The translations under genes were made by a program, and so were the position numbers. From positions 1-37,776 of the forward strand of contig JAAYGD010000008.1 in NCBI GenBank assembly GCA_012727915.1: a stretch of 37,776 nucleotides of DNA. Direction: 5' to 3'. Below the pieces are notes generated by a model, which worked only from the letters and a program-made list of their open reading frames with translations, searched no databases and was not told the DNA's origin. Positions 1 through 9,084 of this stretch are shown here, in pieces; position 1 is the stretch's first letter; each line of letters begins with the position of its first letter. Source of the DNA: Mycoplasmatota bacterium (GTDB lineage Bacteria > Bacillota_I > Bacilli_A > RF39 > UBA660).

Positions 1-1
1 A

Positions 2-139
2 GAAATACCATCAAATGTTAATGCAAAAACTAATGCTATTTCAGAAACACATACTTTTTATGATACTTATAATCCAACAAAACAAGGGGGCGTATATACT
101 GCCCCATCTCAAGAGGGGATATGGACTAAACAACCATAA
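2..139 (+). CDS. 3' end (45 aa, runs off the window start) of a probable BspA/TpLRR-type surface protein
   Basis: Frame 2 reads EIPSNVNAKTNAISETHTFYDTYNPTKQGGVYTAPSQEGIWTKQP*. This aligns by eye with the C-terminus of the LRR protein at 15426-16469 (SISENFYKTYVTNKKEAGTYKSSEQNGTWTKQS). Not in the ORF track. Confidence 0.75.
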   Translation, partial: EIPSNVNAKTNAISETHTFYDTYNPTKQGGVYTAPSQEGIWTKQP

Positions 140-141
140 TA

Positions 142-164
142 AAAACAGGATTTATTCCTGTTTT
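142..164. terminator. Bidirectional intrinsic terminator between convergent genes
   Basis: AAAACAGGA-tttat-TCCTGTTTT inverted repeat, overlapping the stop of the 152-592 gene. Confidence 0.6.
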
Positions 165-592
165 CCTTTACAATTAATACAAGGATTATTATTAATACAA
201 TAATTATCTATATCAATAGTTTCAATATTTAATGTTTTTTTAAGATATTGTTCTAACTTAGTAATTGTATAACAAGATACTGAATTTTTAATGTTTTCCG
301 AATCTCTAATAGCTATTTTTTTGTCTATTTTTAGTACATCTGTAAAGAATATTTGAAGTATACTATCTTTTCTAAGTATATTATTTATATAAGTTTTACC
401 TGTTTCAGTTATTGTTATTTTGTTAGCATAATTGATTAGTTTTAAATTATCTAATGTTTTAAGTGCTCTTACAACACTGGGCTTACTATAATTTAAATGT
501 TTAGAAATATTTGTTATAGTAATTTCATTATTTTTAGATACTTCAAATATAGCTATTAAGTATTCAGTTTGAGAAGGAGTTAATTCTATCAT
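152..592 (-). CDS. DtxR/MntR-family winged-helix transcriptional regulator with Cys-rich C-terminus
   Basis: [13 protein letters not shown]...[19 protein letters not shown]...ITETG is the DtxR wHTH pattern, followed by a dimerisation-domain-like helix set. ATGA overlap with the sufB stop. Cys107, 132, 138, 141. Confidence 0.85.
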
Positions 593-1968: not shown

Positions 1969-2392
1969 CTTTATCACCTATAGCTTTCTTAAATGCTTTA
2001 TATGGTAATATCGCACATTTTATTCTAGGTGGTAAATTTTTAATACCTTCAAATGCTATAGCATCTTTAATAATATTTTTATCAAAATCTTTTCCTACTA
2101 GCATATTATTAATATTATTAATAATTATATCTACTTCTTTTAAAGTTTTTCCAATTAATAATTCACTCATAATAGAAGTAGAAGCTTTGCATACAGTACA
2201 TCCATTTACATCGTAAGAAACATCTTTGATAATATCTTTATCAATTAGAACATATATTAATACATCATCGCCACAAGCCGGATTTTTTAAATAAGATTTT
2301 AAATATTCCTGACTATTTATTTCTTTTTTATTTTTTGGATTTTCAATGTGATCTAATATAATGTTTCTATATAAATCATTAGAATAATTCAT
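1958..2392 (-). CDS. sufU: SufU zinc-dependent sulfur-transfer protein
   Basis: [23 protein letters not shown] and RIKCA motifs; lies between sufS and sufB. Confidence 0.95.
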
Positions 2393-3569
2393 TTATATAA
2401 TCACCTGCTTTCATTAAAATTTCAATTAATTTATCTATTTCTTCTTTTGTATTATAAAAAGATAAACTAATTCTTACTGTTGAATCTACTTTTAAATACT
2501 TCATAAAAGGTTCACAACAATGATGACCCGCTCTAACAATAATATTATATTTATCTAAAAGGCTTCCTATATCATGAGAATGTATATTATTAATGTTAAA
2601 TAACACTATTGAACTATCTTCATTTTGTTCATTATATATATTTATATTATATATATTTTGTAATTGTTTAATTAGATATTTTCTTAAATTAACAACATAA
2701 TTATGCATATTAATGATACCAATTTTATTTATATAATCTATGGCTTTCCCTAAACCCAATACAGAAGAAATCATCATAGTTCCTGCTTCGAATTTGTAAG
2801 GAGTATCTTTATATGTAGTATTATCTATAGATACAGAATCTATCATTTCACCACCATATGATATTGGTTCCATATTATCTAATAATTGTTTTTTTCCATA
2901 AAGAATACCAATTCCTGTTGGTCCATACATTTTATGGCCAGAAAAAGCATAGAAATCAACTTCTAAATCTTTAACATCAATTTTAATATTTGAAATTGCT
3001 TGAGCTCCATCCACAATAAATAAAGCATTATATTTATGAATAATATTAGATAATTCTTTAATGTTGTTTGTGGCTCCCATAGTGTTTGATACATGGTTAA
3101 GGGCTACAATTTTTGTGTTAGTATTTATATTATTTTTTAATAGAGAAGGGGATATTGTTCCATTTTTTTCTACATCTAATACAATTAATTTAGCTTTTTT
3201 TCTTTTACATAATTTTTGCCAAGGAACAAAATTTGAATGATGTTCTATTATTGAAATTATAATTTCATCGTTTTCATTTATAATATCTTCTAAGAAATAA
3301 GCAAGTAGGTTAATACTATCAGTAGTTCCTCTAGTAAATACAATTTCATTATTATTAGCGTTAATAAAATTAGCAACTTTATTTCTTACTTCTTCATATT
3401 TGTTAGTAGAATAATATGATAAACTATCTATTCCTCTATTAATGTTAGAATTATATTTAGTATAATAATCATTTATTTCATTTATAACTTCAATAGGTTT
3501 AAATGAAGTTGCAGCATTATTAAAATATATGTATTTTTCTTTTAACATTGGAAAATCTTCTCGATTCAT
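2379..3569 (-). CDS. sufS: SufS class II cysteine desulfurase
   Basis: REDFP, NAATS, EHHSN, DGAQ, FSGHKMYGPTGIG (PLP lysine) and RAGHHC (catalytic Cys). Confidence 0.97.
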   Translation of the reverse strand: MNREDFPMLKEKYIYFNNAATSFKPIEVINEINDYYTKYNSNINRGIDSLSYYSTNKYEEVRNKVANFINANNNEIVFTRGTTDSINLLAYFLEDIINENDEIIISIIEHHSNFVPWQKLCKRKKAKLIVLDVEKNGTISPSLLKNNINTNTKIVALNHVSNTMGATNNIKELSNIIHKYNALFIVDGAQAISNIKIDVKDLEVDFYAFSGHKMYGPTGIGILYGKKQLLDNMEPISYGGEMIDSVSIDNTTYKDTPYKFEAGTMMISSVLGLGKAIDYINKIGIINMHNYVVNLRKYLIKQLQNIYNINIYNEQNEDSSIVLFNINNIHSHDIGSLLDKYNIIVRAGHHCCEPFMKYLKVDSTVRISLSFYNTKEEIDKLIEILMKAGDYINELF

Positions 3570-4303
3570 ATATACCTCACAATCATTTTTTCAATTATTT
3601 CTTTTTTTTCAATAGGAGTATCTTTTAAAAGAAAATTTAATGCATACATTCTATTTGCTTCTTCTTTACTTATTCCTTTACTCATCAAATAATATAAATC
3701 TCTATCATTAAGTTTAGAAACACTAGATGAATGTTTTGCAAAAACATTATTTTCATCTATAAAAAGAATAGGAGACATTTCTACTTTTGAATTATTATCA
3801 AATATTATTGCTTCGATATTTTGATTTGAATTGGAATTTATAGAATCGTTTTTAATATTACTTTTAATATTCATTAAACAATTTGAATTGTTATTTAAAA
3901 TAGTTCTATTAATAATAATAGAATTAGTATTGTTGTTTAGATGATTTACAAGAGTATTGTGAGTACTTATATTATTGTTAGATAAATTAATTAATGAAAA
4001 GTTAGAATTGCTATTTTTACCAATTAAATTTATATTAATATCTGTAGTACTCTTTTTATTAAATAAACCAAAGAATAATTTTACTGATGAATTATCATCT
4101 ACATTTATTGTTAAATTTAATTTAATATTATGAATAGTAATTAAATAGATATTACTTTTTATATTTTTTTCTAAGGTTATGTTTAAATTTAAATTTAAGT
4201 ATTTTATAATATCTAATTCTAAATCTACATTTTTATTTATTATTATTTCTTTATCTAAGACTTTATCTATCTTTAAATTAGTATTATCGCTAATCTCTAT
4301 CAT
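3566..4303 (-). CDS. sufD: SufD (short, 245 aa)
   Basis: C-terminal PILFIDENNVFAKHSSSV...LYYLMSKGI pattern; lies between sufC and sufS. Confidence 0.88.
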   Translation of the reverse strand: MIEISDNTNLKIDKVLDKEIIINKNVDLELDIIKYLNLNLNITLEKNIKSNIYLITIHNIKLNLTINVDDNSSVKLFFGLFNKKSTTDININLIGKNSNSNFSLINLSNNNISTHNTLVNHLNNNTNSIIINRTILNNNSNCLMNIKSNIKNDSINSNSNQNIEAIIFDNNSKVEMSPILFIDENNVFAKHSSSVSKLNDRDLYYLMSKGISKEEANRMYALNFLLKDTPIEKKEIIEKMIVRYI

Positions 4304-5025
4304 GATTTATAACCTTCTTTTTCTATCTTTTCTGCTAAAGAATTATCACCAGATTGAGTAATTCTACCATTATCAATAACATGTACATGAGTTGGTTTTA
4401 AATATTTTAAAATATTAGTATGATGAGTAATTATTAAAAAAGATATTTCATCATTATTCTCATAGTATTCTTTTAAAGTTTTACCAACAGTTTTAACTGC
4501 ATCTACATCTAAACCAGAATCTATTTCATCTAAAATAATTAGTTTTGGTTTAAACATTAGTATTTGCGCAATTTCATTTTTCTTTTTTTCACCACCACTA
4601 AAACCTACATTAACATCTCTTTTAATATAGTCATCTTTTAGATTTAATTTATCTTTTGTATTTTCAATTAATTTATATAATTCTATTGTATTAATTTTTT
4701 CTTTATTTCTAGAGTTTATAGCGTTTTTAATAAAATCAAGATTAGAAATTCCATCTAATTCGTTAGGATATTGCATTGCAAGAAACATACCTTTTCTAGC
4801 TCTTTCATCAACTGTCATTTTAATTAAATCTTCATTATTAAAATAAATGGATCCATTTAATATTTCATATCTAGGATCTCCCATTAATGTGTTTGCAAGG
4901 GTACTTTTACCAATACCATTTTTCCCCATAACTGCATGAATTTCTTTATTGTTTATATTTAAACTGATATTGTTTAATATTTCTTTTCCATCAGTTTTTA
5001 CTTTTAAATTTTTTATTGTAAGCAT
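4300..5025 (-). CDS. sufC: SufC ABC-type ATPase
   Basis: MGKNGIGKST Walker A, FLAMQYP, NVGFSGGEKK, LDEIDSGLD and ITH. The ATG at 5025 has an AGGAGG RBS. Confidence 0.96.
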   Translation of the reverse strand: MLTIKNLKVKTDGKEILNNISLNINNKEIHAVMGKNGIGKSTLANTLMGDPRYEILNGSIYFNNEDLIKMTVDERARKGMFLAMQYPNELDGISNLDFIKNAINSRNKEKINTIELYKLIENTKDKLNLKDDYIKRDVNVGFSGGEKKKNEIAQILMFKPKLIILDEIDSGLDVDAVKTVGKTLKEYYENNDEISFLIITHHTNILKYLKPTHVHVIDNGRITQSGDNSLAEKIEKEGYKS

Positions 5026-5036
5026 AATTATCCTCC

Positions 5037-5054
5037 TGTTAGCAGACGCTAACA
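5037..5054. promoter_or_regulatory. Palindromic operator at the suf transcription start (DtxR-family-like box)
   Basis: TGTTAGC-agac-GCTAACA with perfect 7-bp arms, between the -10 and the sufC RBS. Confidence 0.65.
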
Positions 5055-5059
5055 AAACA

Positions 5060-5088
5060 ATTATATTATATAAATCAAAAATATGCAA
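5060..5088 (-). promoter_or_regulatory. SigA promoter of the suf operon
   Basis: Minus strand TTGCAT (5088-5083), 17-nt spacer, TATAAT (5065-5060). Confidence 0.65.
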
Positions 5089-5101
5089 CAATAAATGTTT
5101 G

Positions 5102-5110
5102 TGATATAAT
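5102..5110 (+). promoter_or_regulatory. Extended -10 promoter
   Basis: TGATATAAT upstream of an AGGAGG RBS and the ATG at 5129. Confidence 0.55.
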
Positions 5111-5128
5111 TATTTTTAGGAGGTTTTT

Positions 5129-5830
5129 ATGTTTCAACATAAACTTGATTATGATAGGTTAAAGAATGATTTTGAAAAAAGTTTTGAAAAAAATGAAAAG
5201 AAGGCATTAGATGATTCTTTGCTTTTTAATAGTAATTTTATTGATAACTTAATTTATTTACTTAAAGAAGAAATAAGTGTTATTGATAGATATTATTATG
5301 ATTTTTCTTTGTTTTTAGGAAACAAAGATATTACTGGACATGAAATATATGATTTTTATCATAGATATTTTTCTAATGATATTGCAAATGAAGAAAAAGA
5401 AAAAATTAATGAAGGAAATTCGAATGTTGAAATTGCGTATATTTATTATGTTGAAGATGGTTATAAGATAGTTCCGGAAACCGAAGCATCTGAAGATGTA
5501 AAAAATAATATTTGTGATGATTGGGGAGACAATTGTTCTTTATTAATATTGATAAATAAAAAAATAATGGAACAAAAACATGGTTTAACTTTGTCATTAG
5601 TGGAATTAAGTACTTTACCTTACTATAGATCTAAAGAAGAATATATAGGAGAATTATTAAAGTATGATTTAAATGATGATATATTATCTTATAATAATGA
5701 AGAAACTAAGAGATATTTTGTTGAAGTAATAAAAGAATATTCTAATAAAAACGGGAATAATTTGAATGATTTATTAGAAGATGTAATGATTAATGATAAA
5801 CCAATAAAATATAGTTTAGAAAGGCATTGA
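5129..5830 (+). CDS. Hypothetical acidic cytoplasmic protein
   Basis: 233-aa ORF with RBS, promoter and terminator; no recognisable motif. Confidence 0.75.
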   Translation: MFQHKLDYDRLKNDFEKSFEKNEKKALDDSLLFNSNFIDNLIYLLKEEISVIDRYYYDFSLFLGNKDITGHEIYDFYHRYFSNDIANEEKEKINEGNSNVEIAYIYYVEDGYKIVPETEASEDVKNNICDDWGDNCSLLILINKKIMEQKHGLTLSLVELSTLPYYRSKEEYIGELLKYDLNDDILSYNNEETKRYFVEVIKEYSNKNGNNLNDLLEDVMINDKPIKYSLERH

Positions 5831-5846
5831 AAAATGCTTTTTTTTC
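5821..5846 (+). terminator. Intrinsic terminator
   Basis: AAGGCATT-gaaa-AATGCTTT followed by a T run. Confidence 0.65.
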
Positions 5847-5899
5847 TTTATAAAATATACTTTATTGTGGTATAATAAACTTGTTTTAGGAGGTCTTTT

Positions 5900-6607
5900 A
5901 TGGCAGTAATATATAAATTAGTTAATGTTAGTAAAATTTATAAAAGAAAAAATTTTGAGACCAGAGCATTAGATGATATAAATTTAGACATTAATGAAGG
6001 TGAAGTTATAGTCATAGTAGGACCATCAGGTAGTGGAAAAAGCACCTTATTAAACGTATTATCATGTGTTGATAATGTTACAAATGGAGAAATTTATTAT
6101 AAAGATATGAATATATGTTTATTTAATGAAAAGAGTAAAGTTGAATATATTAGAGAAGTACCTGGATTTATTTTTCAATCTTATAATTTAATTCCCAATT
6201 TAATTGCAAAAGAAAATATAGAATTAGCTTCTCATATTTCGAAAGCTCCATTAGATGTTAAAGATATTATAAAATTAGTGGGTTTAAATGAACATAAATA
6301 TAAGTTTCCTTTTCAAATGAGTGGGGGGCAATTACAAAGGGTATCTATTGCTAGAGCATTGGTTAAAAATCCTAGGGTTTTATTTTGTGATGAACCAACT
6401 GGAGCTTTAGATGAAAAGATGGGTAAACAAATATTAAAATTATTACAAAAGATAAATAAACAATATAAGAACACTTTAATAATAGTAACTCATAATCCTA
6501 GTATTGGAGATATTGCAAATACCGTTATTACTATGAAAAATGGGAAAATTGATAATATCAAAAGAAATGAAAAAACAAAAAAAGCTGATGAAATAGGGTG
6601 GGCATAA
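5900..6607 (+). CDS. ABC transporter ATP-binding protein (LolD/MacB-NBD family)
   Basis: GPSGSGKST, FIFQSYNL, MSGGQLQR, FCDEPTGALD and VTH. TGGTATAAT promoter at 5868-5876 and an AGGAGG RBS. Confidence 0.95.
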   Translation: MAVIYKLVNVSKIYKRKNFETRALDDINLDINEGEVIVIVGPSGSGKSTLLNVLSCVDNVTNGEIYYKDMNICLFNEKSKVEYIREVPGFIFQSYNLIPNLIAKENIELASHISKAPLDVKDIIKLVGLNEHKYKFPFQMSGGQLQRVSIARALVKNPRVLFCDEPTGALDEKMGKQILKLLQKINKQYKNTLIIVTHNPSIGDIANTVITMKNGKIDNIKRNEKTKKADEIGWA

Positions 6608-9084
6608 TGAAGTTATTATTTATAAATTCATTTTCAAGTATTAGAAAGAAAAAATTACAAATAATAGGAATAATCCTTTTAGTGTTTTTATCTACTAGTA
6701 TTTATACGATGATGAATATGGCAGTAGATAGAATGGAAGGAGCTTATACTAATTATATTAATGAACAAAATGTTGAAGATTTAAGTTTAACTATTGATAT
6801 TGATTATAGAAATAGTTATACATATTCTGATGTTTTGAATATAAAGGGTAATATAGAGACTGATGATAATGAACAATATATTATTAATTTATATTTAATG
6901 TGTTTAGCAAGTAGAAATTGTACAGATGATTTTCTTAAACAAGTAGATAGAGTATTTGAAAAATATGATTTAAATAAATCAAAGAAACAAGAAGTATTAG
7001 AAGATATTGCAAGAAAATATAATTTTTATTATGAGGAAACAAGAAGTAAATTGGGTCAAAATAATGATTATATTTATAGAGTTATGCCTTATATTAAAAA
7101 TAAGAAAATCAATAAACCTTTTTTAATAAAAGGAAAGTTTCCAACCGCAAATAATGAAGTAACTATTTTAGATGGATATGCTAAAAAAAATAATTTGAAA
7201 ATTGGAAGTAAGATAAATTTAAGTGATAAGGAATATACAATAGTTGGTTATGCATATGCATCTGATTATATGTATCCTATAATTAATATTTCTTCTCCTA
7301 TGTTTGATGAACAAAAACATAATATAGTTTTTATGCACTCTGATGAATATAAAAATTTTAATGGTGTTGAAGAAATAGCTAATAGTATTAAATTTAAAAA
7401 AGAAAATAGAACAGATGAAATTGTTGAAAAAGAAAAAAAAGCATATCTTTCTATGAATGATATGTTAAGAATAGTAAGAAATAAATCTCCCAAATTAAAG
7501 TTTGAAAATGGAAGAATTTTTACTGAGAGTTTCTTATATTTATTATTGGGAGTATCCGCTATAATAATATTAGTAATAGCTAAGAAGAGAATAGATGATG
7601 AAAGATTACAAATTGGTGTATTAAAAGCTTTAGGCTATAATAGATCTTCTATAGCGTTATCTTATTTACTATATCCATTAATAGGTGGTTTAGTTGGTGG
7701 AATATTAGGTTTTACTTTTGGATATTTTATGCATCCTACAATGACAAGTTTATTTATTAGTTATTACAATGTTCCTACTTTAAAAGCTACTTTTGATACC
7801 TCATATTTATTAAAAAGTACATTAATTCCAACAGTTGTCTTATCTATATTGACTTTCTTTATATTCTTATTTATGTTGAGACATAAAGCATTATATTTGT
7901 TGAGAGAAGGAAGTAATATTAAGGTTAATTTTATAAGCAGAATAATATCAAGAATTACTATGATTTTACCTTTTAAAGAAAGATTAAGAATTTCTTTAGC
8001 AAATAGATCTATAGGTAAATTGTTTATAGTGTCATTATCTTCATTTTTAACAGGTTTACTTATAGTATTAGTTTTAGTGGTATTTGATTTGTTTTCATTT
8101 ATTATAGATAAAAGCTTTAAAGATGTTAAATATGATTATGTAGTCAATTATTTGAAACCAGAAACAACAATTAATTTAGTTGATGATTTAGTTTTAACTA
8201 GAGGATATGAAATATCTAAAGTTTATGATAGTAATGATGATTTAAAAGATTTAAAGGAAAGAAAAAAAGATTCTAATAATTCTATTACAATTGAAGGAAT
8301 AGATAAAGAATTAAAATATTTTTATTTGTATGATGAAAATAATAATAAACTTAATACAGATTTAAGTGAAGATAAAATAATAATTAATACTAATATGTCT
8401 AAGATTCTTGGTTTAGAAATTGGGGATAAAATTATATTTAAAAATTTAGATAGAAAATATACGATTGTCAATATTACTGAATCATTCAATGGTTTTTCTG
8501 CATATGTAGATAGGGAAGATTTTGCAAAAGCTATGTCATTAAAATTATCTTATAATAAAATATATTCTAAAGATAGTAAATATTCTGATTATTCTAAAAT
8601 TGAAAATGAAGAAATTATGAATATAGCTAGTATATTTAGTACTAAAGATTTAAAGAGAAATATGGGTACTATTTTAGAAACTTATGATATATCTTTATAT
8701 GTAGTAATGGTATTTGCCGCAATAATGGTATTTGTTATAGTTTTAATTATTGCTAATATTGTTATTGAAGAAAACAAAAAAACTATATCATTAATGAGAG
8801 TATTAGGGTATAAGAAAAAAGAAATAAATTCGATAGTATTAAATATGTATACTCCATTTATTATAATATCTTATATATTATCTATACCTGCTATGATATA
8901 TTTGTTAGAAAAAATTGTTGAAATATTAATGAAAGATATTGATTTTGCTCTTCCTATTACTATTTCTTATATTAAAGCATTTATTGGTTTATTAATATTA
9001 CTTGTTGGATATTATTTAGCAATGTATATTTCAAAAAGAACATTAAAAAGGATACCTTTATCGGTAGCATTAAAGAGGGAGTAA
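6607..9084 (+). CDS. FtsX/MacB-like (type VII) ABC permease with two permease repeats
   Basis: Two FtsX-type segments (DERLQIGVLKALGY; ENKKTISLMRVLGY) and two large extracellular loops. The TAATG overlap with the upstream ATPase favours the ATG at 6607. Confidence 0.92.
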   Translation: MKLLFINSFSSIRKKKLQIIGIILLVFLSTSIYTMMNMAVDRMEGAYTNYINEQNVEDLSLTIDIDYRNSYTYSDVLNIKGNIETDDNEQYIINLYLMCLASRNCTDDFLKQVDRVFEKYDLNKSKKQEVLEDIARKYNFYYEETRSKLGQNNDYIYRVMPYIKNKKINKPFLIKGKFPTANNEVTILDGYAKKNNLKIGSKINLSDKEYTIVGYAYASDYMYPIINISSPMFDEQKHNIVFMHSDEYKNFNGVEEIANSIKFKKENRTDEIVEKEKKAYLSMNDMLRIVRNKSPKLKFENGRIFTESFLYLLLGVSAIIILVIAKKRIDDERLQIGVLKALGYNRSSIALSYLLYPLIGGLVGGILGFTFGYFMHPTMTSLFISYYNVPTLKATFDTSYLLKSTLIPTVVLSILTFFIFLFMLRHKALYLLREGSNIKVNFISRIISRITMILPFKERLRISLANRSIGKLFIVSLSSFLTGLLIVLVLVVFDLFSFIIDKSFKDVKYDYVVNYLKPETTINLVDDLVLTRGYEISKVYDSNDDLKDLKERKKDSNNSITIEGIDKELKYFYLYDENNNKLNTDLSEDKIIINTNMSKILGLEIGDKIIFKNLDRKYTIVNITESFNGFSAYVDREDFAKAMSLKLSYNKIYSKDSKYSDYSKIENEEIMNIASIFSTKDLKRNMGTILETYDISLYVVMVFAAIMVFVIVLIIANIVIEENKKTISLMRVLGYKKKEINSIVLNMYTPFIIISYILSIPAMIYLLEKIVEILMKDIDFALPITISYIKAFIGLLILLVGYYLAMYISKRTLKRIPLSVALKRE

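Follow-up and report, generated by a model that had tools for sequence, protein, structure and literature searches.

A DtxR-fold protein with a cysteine tail as a predicted repressor of Fe-S cluster assembly operons in uncultured Firmicutes

Introduction

The DtxR passages of a 2024 review describe the family as sensors of Fe(II) and Mn(II), and name M10 and C102 of DtxR, together with their counterparts in MntR, as ligands (PMC11672702). Characterized Fe-S sensors, according to passages of the same review and of a recent preprint (bioRxiv 10.64898/2025.12.26.696629), often bind their cluster through three Cys and one other ligand. In Clostridium perfringens, part of an earlier study places an Rrf2 protein just before nifS-nifU-mnmA (PMC2940859). 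How suf is regulated in most Gram-positive bacteria is called unknown in the sections of PMC8593673 that deal with it, and those sections make no mention of DtxR. Our own literature search, with subscription journals, supplements and regulon databases outside its coverage, found no published description of a DtxR protein that is linked to Fe-S genes and carries a Cys tail.

Here we analyze such a protein, encoded in a 37,776-nt stretch of DNA (the window) from a Mycoplasmatota bacterium (contig JAAYGD010000008.1). An earlier note, made from the sequence of the window, had singled out this gene as a candidate Fe-S-sensing regulator of suf.

Results

A DtxR-type gene ends the sufCDSUB operon

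The minus strand of the window carries sufC, sufD, sufS, sufU and sufB in that order, followed by an ORF of 146 amino acids (152-592), the regulator. Four of the suf genes score above the cut-offs of their families: sufC (4300-5025, TIGR01978), sufS (2379-3569, TIGR01979), sufU (1958-2392, TIGR01994) and sufB (589-1977, TIGR01980). The sufD gene (3566-4303) is above the cut-off for PF01458, and its best match, TIGR01981, stays below cut-off; at 245 amino acids this short SufD is essentially the SufBD core without the N-terminal region. We take the ATG at 5025 as the likely start of sufC, with GGAGG at 5032-5036, and rejected the ORF finder's extension to a TTG at 5091, given that the ATG sits just past the predicted operator and the GGAGG.

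The ATG of the regulator overlaps the stop codon of sufB (ATGA), which bears out the earlier note in calling it the last, translationally coupled gene of sufCDSUB. A terminator-like hairpin lies over the regulator stop codon (141-165, minus strand) at the predicted end of the operon; because shuffled sequence yields 0.9 such sites, we weigh it by its position only. At the other end, we read the TATAAT at 5060-5065 (minus strand) as the likely -10 hexamer of the suf promoter; it has no good -35 match and is not in the list from our consensus scan. That sigma-70 scan returned 60 sites in the AT-rich window versus 52.7 expected, and because this count is at chance level we excluded the scan from the evidence. 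Between the TATAAT and the ribosome-binding site of sufC lies the predicted operator, GTTAG-N6-CTAAC (5038-5053), the core of a palindrome with perfect 7-bp arms (5037-5054).

In the source genome, the only matches are the regulator gene and a partial copy of it. This copy opens another contig (L016, G000:C48:1-200) with a 3' end near-identical to that in the window (1-330), and its sequence departs from the window about 20 nt past the regulator stop, which suggests strain variation at the downstream flank of the operon. A paralog was considered as the source of this second match and rejected, given the near-identical 3' end at the contig start.

The regulator combines a DtxR fold with a degenerate metal site

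The regulator scores above the cut-off for PF02742 (32.2 versus 27 bits) and just under it for PF01325 (23 versus 26 bits, E 1e-4); in a clostridial member of the family (P0069) both domains are above cut-off. The Rrf2 domain (PF02082) has no match in the protein at E 0.01. In Foldseek, the model of the regulator matches DR2539, MntR and DtxR with TM scores of about 0.7, all of the matches listed being DtxR-family proteins, and a fold search with a clostridial member gives Z scores of 14-16 to DtxR/MntR-family structures; these searches aligned the DtxR core and barely probed the Cys tail. A search of the ESM Atlas returned generic DtxR cluster names only. These results show that the regulator has the DtxR/MntR fold, with a winged helix-turn-helix (HTH) and dimerization helices.

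A homodimer model of the regulator scores 0.59, compared to 0.00 for the best control, with at least 96% contact agreement between runs and pLDDT of at least 87; the 4Fe-4S ligand in it is unscored. The mark for a homodimer was attained in 20 of 30 solved homodimers and in 1 of 23 single chains. That the model attains it is most likely due to its resemblance to DtxR/MntR dimers of solved structure. In the AlphaFold monomer, modelled without ligand, the Cys tail has pLDDT below 50, and the tail of a clostridial member is also of low confidence.

Alignment with the solved DtxR-family proteins 6o5c, 3hrs (ScaR) and 5cvi (SloR) places TEY, RKD and DSENIKN of the regulator where the references have the ligand motifs EDY, RKH and EAEVLEH. 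Positions 76, 102 and 103, which we take to be metal ligands in MntR/DtxR numbering, have lost His76, Glu102 (now Lys) and His103, but the acidic residues E10, D76 and E99 are kept. The earlier note had the DtxR/MntR ligands replaced: this holds for the canonical His/Glu/His set, which does not align intact, but not for the whole site, which is degenerate rather than wiped out. Throughout the clade defined below, the intact His...Glu/Cys-x2-Glu-His set is found in 0 of 208 members, versus 150 of 178 canonical proteins, the clade groups being partly defined by its absence. By its sequence, then, the regulator is a DtxR by fold that lacks the canonical Fe(II)/Mn(II) ligands, and a member of neither Rrf2 nor SufR.

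As the note had also reported, the only His of the regulator (H32) lies inside the HTH and its Cys residues are at 107, 132, 138 and 141, a spacing of 24-5-2. These comprise Cys107 (codon at 272-274) and a C132-x5-C138-x2-C141 tail (codons within 170-199), the predicted cofactor site.

Two branches share a three-Cys tail

Among the regulator and 45 homologues (48-99% identity), some of them from records titled Bacilli or Mollicutes bacterium, Cys107 is invariant and C132, C138 and C141 are at least 90% conserved. A profile search brought up a second group, which lacks Cys107 and has three Cys in its tail; by record title it comes mostly from uncultured Clostridia. We pooled 418 distinct sequences, set aside two partial and two mislabelled rows, and sorted the rest: 82 proteins are Bacilli-type and 126 clostridial-type, 178 are canonical, a further 15 are canonical and have a Cys tail, and 13 were classed as other. 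On core-only trees (about 123 columns, without the mislabelled outsiders P0140 and P0240), the Bacilli and clostridial branches form one clade, with support of 91/89 for 75 rows (unstarred) and an SH-aLRT of 90 for 178 rows; no canonical protein falls inside the clade on these trees built without the tail.

The metal site has changed in both branches. Position 102 is Lys in 74/82 Bacilli-type and 120/126 clostridial-type proteins and Glu in none, the two groups being partly defined by the absence of E102 and H103 together. D76 is kept in 73/82 and E99 in 62/82 Bacilli-type proteins; in the clostridial branch these positions are unconserved (Q, H or Y at 76; K at 99), and His103 is found in 83/126.

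The tails are far richer in Cys than the cores (9-14% versus 0.4% of residues). Exactly three Cys occur in the C-terminal stretch of 106 of the 126 clostridial-type proteins, and 104 of the 126 show the spacing C-x8-C-x2-C; Bacilli-type members carry four or five Cys with a CxxC and vary in tail spacing (1-2, 5-2, 3-4-2 and others). Because Cys107 is confined to the Bacilli branch, we rejected it as a family-wide ligand, and the shared sensor core would be the three-Cys tail rather than four Cys. The interpretation in the earlier note is supported here, with one adjustment: its Cys are conserved in syntenic orthologues and the three in the tail extend to both branches, but Cys107 belongs to one.

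Similar tails, of the C-x8-CxxC type, are found on the 15 DtxRs that keep E102/H103. Among these, genomic context is known for L133, which adjoins feoB, so tails of this type are not exclusive to Fe-S operons. L133 and P0168, P0175, P0184, P0187, P0190, P0192, P0219, P0224, P0233, P0235, P0236, P0257 and P0264 keep E102/H103 and have a four-Cys extension, often C-x14-C-x8-CxxC and in some followed by FeoA. In the tree they are placed apart from the Fe-S clade. These proteins may be dual-input sensors, or may mark the origin of the tail.

Members of the clade are rare. In a 301-genome sample of the window's order, 3 of 127 genera have full-length matches, and all six genus-mates of the source genome have a match; in the clostridial class, 400 genomes were scored and five have a full-length one.

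Clade members adjoin three kinds of Fe-S assembly operon

We counted distinct complete proteins on fetched loci that have an Fe-S assembly gene adjacent on the same strand within 250 nt. This is the case for 18/18 Bacilli-type and 79/85 clostridial-type regulators, the clostridial loci being close kin and the best 80 of 481 candidates, compared to 0/60 canonical DtxRs. In the Bacilli branch the regulator always follows sufB at the end of sufCDSUB (18/18). The clostridial branch goes beyond what the note had foreseen and heads three different Fe-S assembly systems: a pair of sufC and a SufBD-core gene (69), sufCBDSU (5) and nifS-nifU (5, of which four are headed by the regulator and one has it after nifS). 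The six clostridial exceptions comprise two contig ends, one scoring miss in which the genes are in fact adjacent (L055), two regulators that have moved elsewhere, and an orphan in G734. This orphan has the Cys tail, but the flank examined shows no Fe-S gene beside it, and its genome has no exact operator. Metal-uptake genes such as feoAB and mnt are not the neighbors of the clade, whose neighbors are Fe-S assembly genes; canonical relatives often lie by feoB.

The clostridial SufBD-core protein has no NCBIfam match at E 1e-20, and for this reason we call the pair minimal sufC-sufB, SMS-like, rather than SMS proper. The ATPase of one such pair (L038:8480-9193) has a Cys-Cys in its tail, recalling the Cys-bearing SmsC C-termini mentioned in part of PMC12192291. 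At one locus (L244 of G351, 4518-7299), the regulator lies between nifS and mnmA, where relatives have nifU.

We found neither Rrf2 nor Fur, and no match to feoB, in the source genome (94% complete). Among ten clostridial carriers tested, Rrf2 is over the cut-off in one, G332, where the Rrf2 protein heads nifS-nifU-mnmA and the clade member heads sufC-sufB. Elsewhere, the clade member that precedes nifS-nifU-mnmA occupies the very slot that Rrf2 holds in C. perfringens.

A conserved palindrome tracks the Fe-S operons

The operator core is found once in the window (0.01 expected) and has a single exact copy in the 873-kb genome; because about 0.6 copies are expected there by chance, its weight rests on its position. 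The palindrome lies before sufC in 12/12 Bacilli loci whose sequence covers this part (10 of them distinct, one being the window's twin; L154, whose contig starts inside the site, was left out), and a pattern scan places it before sufC in two further genomes, G070 and G004. In the clostridial branch it precedes the regulator in 80/85 loci, in all 80 lying 29-31 nt past a TTGAC and abutting the -10 hexamer. The five others include two with a one-mismatch site in the same place, one with a weaker site, one with the site at nifS instead and one with none; the G351 member has a one-mismatch site only. The palindrome proposed in the note is thus real and conserved at a promoter position. None of the refutation tests that the note named and that lend themselves to computation, on Cys conservation, ligand alignment and this palindrome, counted against its interpretation.

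Where regulator and operon have come apart, the site tracks the Fe-S operon rather than the regulator gene. G327 has it both in front of the isolated regulator and in front of a distant sufC-sufB. In G328, nifS-nifU-mnmA is preceded by the site and the regulator is not. G329 has two sites, the first ahead of sufC-sufB and the other ahead of regulator-nifS-nifU. An exact-pattern scan of 16 genomes places promoter-position sites only at Fe-S operons and the regulator; the single exception is intergenic and follows a tRNA-like sequence (L196). In one Bacilli sub-branch (L122, L123, L124, L127, L156), the stretch from the -10-like hexamer to the operator contains an extra short inverted repeat, AGACTT...AAGTC.

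The idea that this operator is unique to the Fe-S clade was rejected: the same type of site is present at 11 of 46 canonical DtxR loci, in many cases close to feoB. Its occurrence there ties it to the DtxR-type HTH, which supports the predicted binding and denies uniqueness. The site is therefore of DtxR type, inherited from an iron-uptake regulator.

In regulator-less family-mates, the site is absent within 1.5 kb upstream of sufC in 29/29 informative loci (30 loci were taken as the top scorers among 42 sufC matches, and one lacked upstream sequence). The SufC tree includes 28 of these 29 controls and places them in one nested clade. We read this as a single event in which a regulated ancestor lost regulator and site together, so that the 29 controls carry the weight of one test.

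Several of these relatives show arrangements of their own. In L163, L166, L167, L168, L182 and L185, sufC is often divergent from a gene that, from its motif, we take to be HIT-like, and between the two genes there is another palindrome, conserved but imperfect (TGAATA...ATATTC), which may be a different operator; Rfam has no match in three of these loci. In two relatives, a CsoR/RcnR-type repressor (PF02583) with extra N-terminal Cys overlaps the sufC start (L181:2240-2551, minus strand; L188:1113-1487, plus strand) and is a candidate second replacement regulator of suf.

Discussion

We propose, with a probability of roughly 0.6, that the regulator is a dedicated repressor of sufCDSUB with a DtxR fold and a cluster-bearing tail that binds GTTAG-N6-CTAAC. 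The parts of this reading differ in strength. That clade members are dedicated repressors of Fe-S biogenesis operons is very probable from the gene neighborhoods and site positions, with strong grounds for DNA binding; repression is suggested because the site overlies the -10 region, the transcription start or the ribosome-binding site. An Fe-S cluster as the cofactor has moderate grounds, and sensing by a cluster held in the Cys tail is probable rather than assured. Given that the canonical metal site is disabled, the conserved Cys tail would be the obvious new input. A cluster is favored because the targets are three kinds of Fe-S assembly operon, because the gene swaps places with Rrf2, and because most clostridial members have exactly three Cys, as do IscR, RirA, NsrR and SufR. 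The low-confidence tail in the models and the variable Cys spacing of the Bacilli branch speak against it.

In the mechanism that we envisage, the regulator dimer with a cluster in its tail would bind the operator over the suf promoter and repress its own operon; when clusters are scarce or oxidized, it would leave the operator and suf would be expressed. We predict the holo form to be the repressing one on the model of IscR, RisR and SufR, and of co-repression in DtxR.

The alternative that survives best is unlikely by our estimate, and shares the dedicated repressor and the operator with our reading: the tail would be a structural Zn site or a thiol, persulfide or oxidant switch, and oxidative or sulfur stress would release repression. 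Four or five Cys with a CxxC, as in the Bacilli members, are also compatible with Zn. Tails of similar type on DtxRs that keep E102/H103 fit this alternative too, and so does the case of Streptococcus mutans, where, according to part of PMC8264796, PerR and Spx make suf responsive to oxidative stress. It sits less well with the 106 clostridial members that have just three Cys, though the His103 that many of that branch carry could be a fourth Zn ligand, and with the clade member found in the Rrf2/IscR slot before nifS-nifU-mnmA (compare the relevant part of PMC2940859).

More doubtful still is that the regulator senses mononuclear Fe(II) through a rebuilt site made of E10, D76 and E99, of tail thiols or of both, so that repression of suf would depend on free iron. 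The clade does resemble feoAB-linked DtxRs in its fold, predicted dimer interface and type of operator, most Bacilli-type members keep D76 and E99, and DtxR is predicted to control suf in Corynebacterium diphtheriae within a global iron regulon, according to part of PMC524172. Against this, Lys stands in for Glu102 throughout, the clostridial branch has not conserved positions 76 and 99, the promoter-position sites in the scanned genomes are confined to Fe-S operons and the regulator save at L196, and the source genome gives no feoB match. A ligand-independent constitutive autorepressor or decaying passenger, with Lys102 in place of the metal and the Cys incidental, is very improbable: the patchy spread and the orphan G734 would fit it, but the Cys and the operator are kept across two bacterial classes and track Fe-S operons through rearrangements.

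If the cluster of the preferred reading, a tail-borne Fe-S sensor, is confirmed, the regulator would be a DtxR protein that binds Fe-S, of a type for which we found no description in the literature searched, and a clean case of a metal sensor that switched its signal while its DNA site stayed the same. Computation has defined a regulator together with its predicted 16-bp operator and target operons, which makes the control of suf directly testable in these lineages. The clade is found only in small-genome uncultured Bacilli and Clostridia, and it therefore does not explain control of suf in model Firmicutes.

Comparison with known regulators

We somewhat favor the view that the clade represents a third scaffold for such control, after Rrf2 (IscR/RisR) and SufR: a DtxR protein that would have exchanged its Fe(II) site for a tail cluster, kept the ancestral operator, and come to exert feedback on SUF, minimal SufBC and NifS-NifU interchangeably in uncultured Firmicutes. 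With the DtxR/IdeR/MntR family (DtxR, B. subtilis MntR, ScaR, SloR, DR2539) it shares the winged HTH, the dimerization fold and the predicted dimer interface, and with canonical feo-linked Firmicute DtxRs the type of operator. Unlike them, the clade lacks the His/Glu/His ligands, with a change from Glu to Lys that is clade-wide, has a Cys tail in place of the SH3/FeoA domain, and targets Fe-S assembly operons, not metal uptake.

The likeness to IscR and RisR is by inference: predicted co-transcription with genes for Fe-S assembly, a set of three conserved Cys, an operator that is palindromic and, as in the account given in part of PMC9973013, apparent movement between SUF and MIS-type operons. 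The clade differs from these Rrf2 proteins in fold, in the placement of the Cys and in operator. SufR (COG2345) is comparable in design, a repressor dedicated to suf whose HTH is N-terminal and whose [4Fe-4S] site, with three Cys, is C-terminal (bioRxiv 10.64898/2025.12.26.696629; PMC8593673), but it belongs to an unrelated family and to cyanobacteria, Mycobacterium and Streptomyces rather than to the phyla of the clade. By its description in part of PMC8593673, SufR has a C-x12-C-x13-C-x14-C-type motif and binds CAAC-N6-GTTG; the regulator described here has a Cys spacing of 24-5-2 and is predicted to bind GTTAG-N6-CTAAC.
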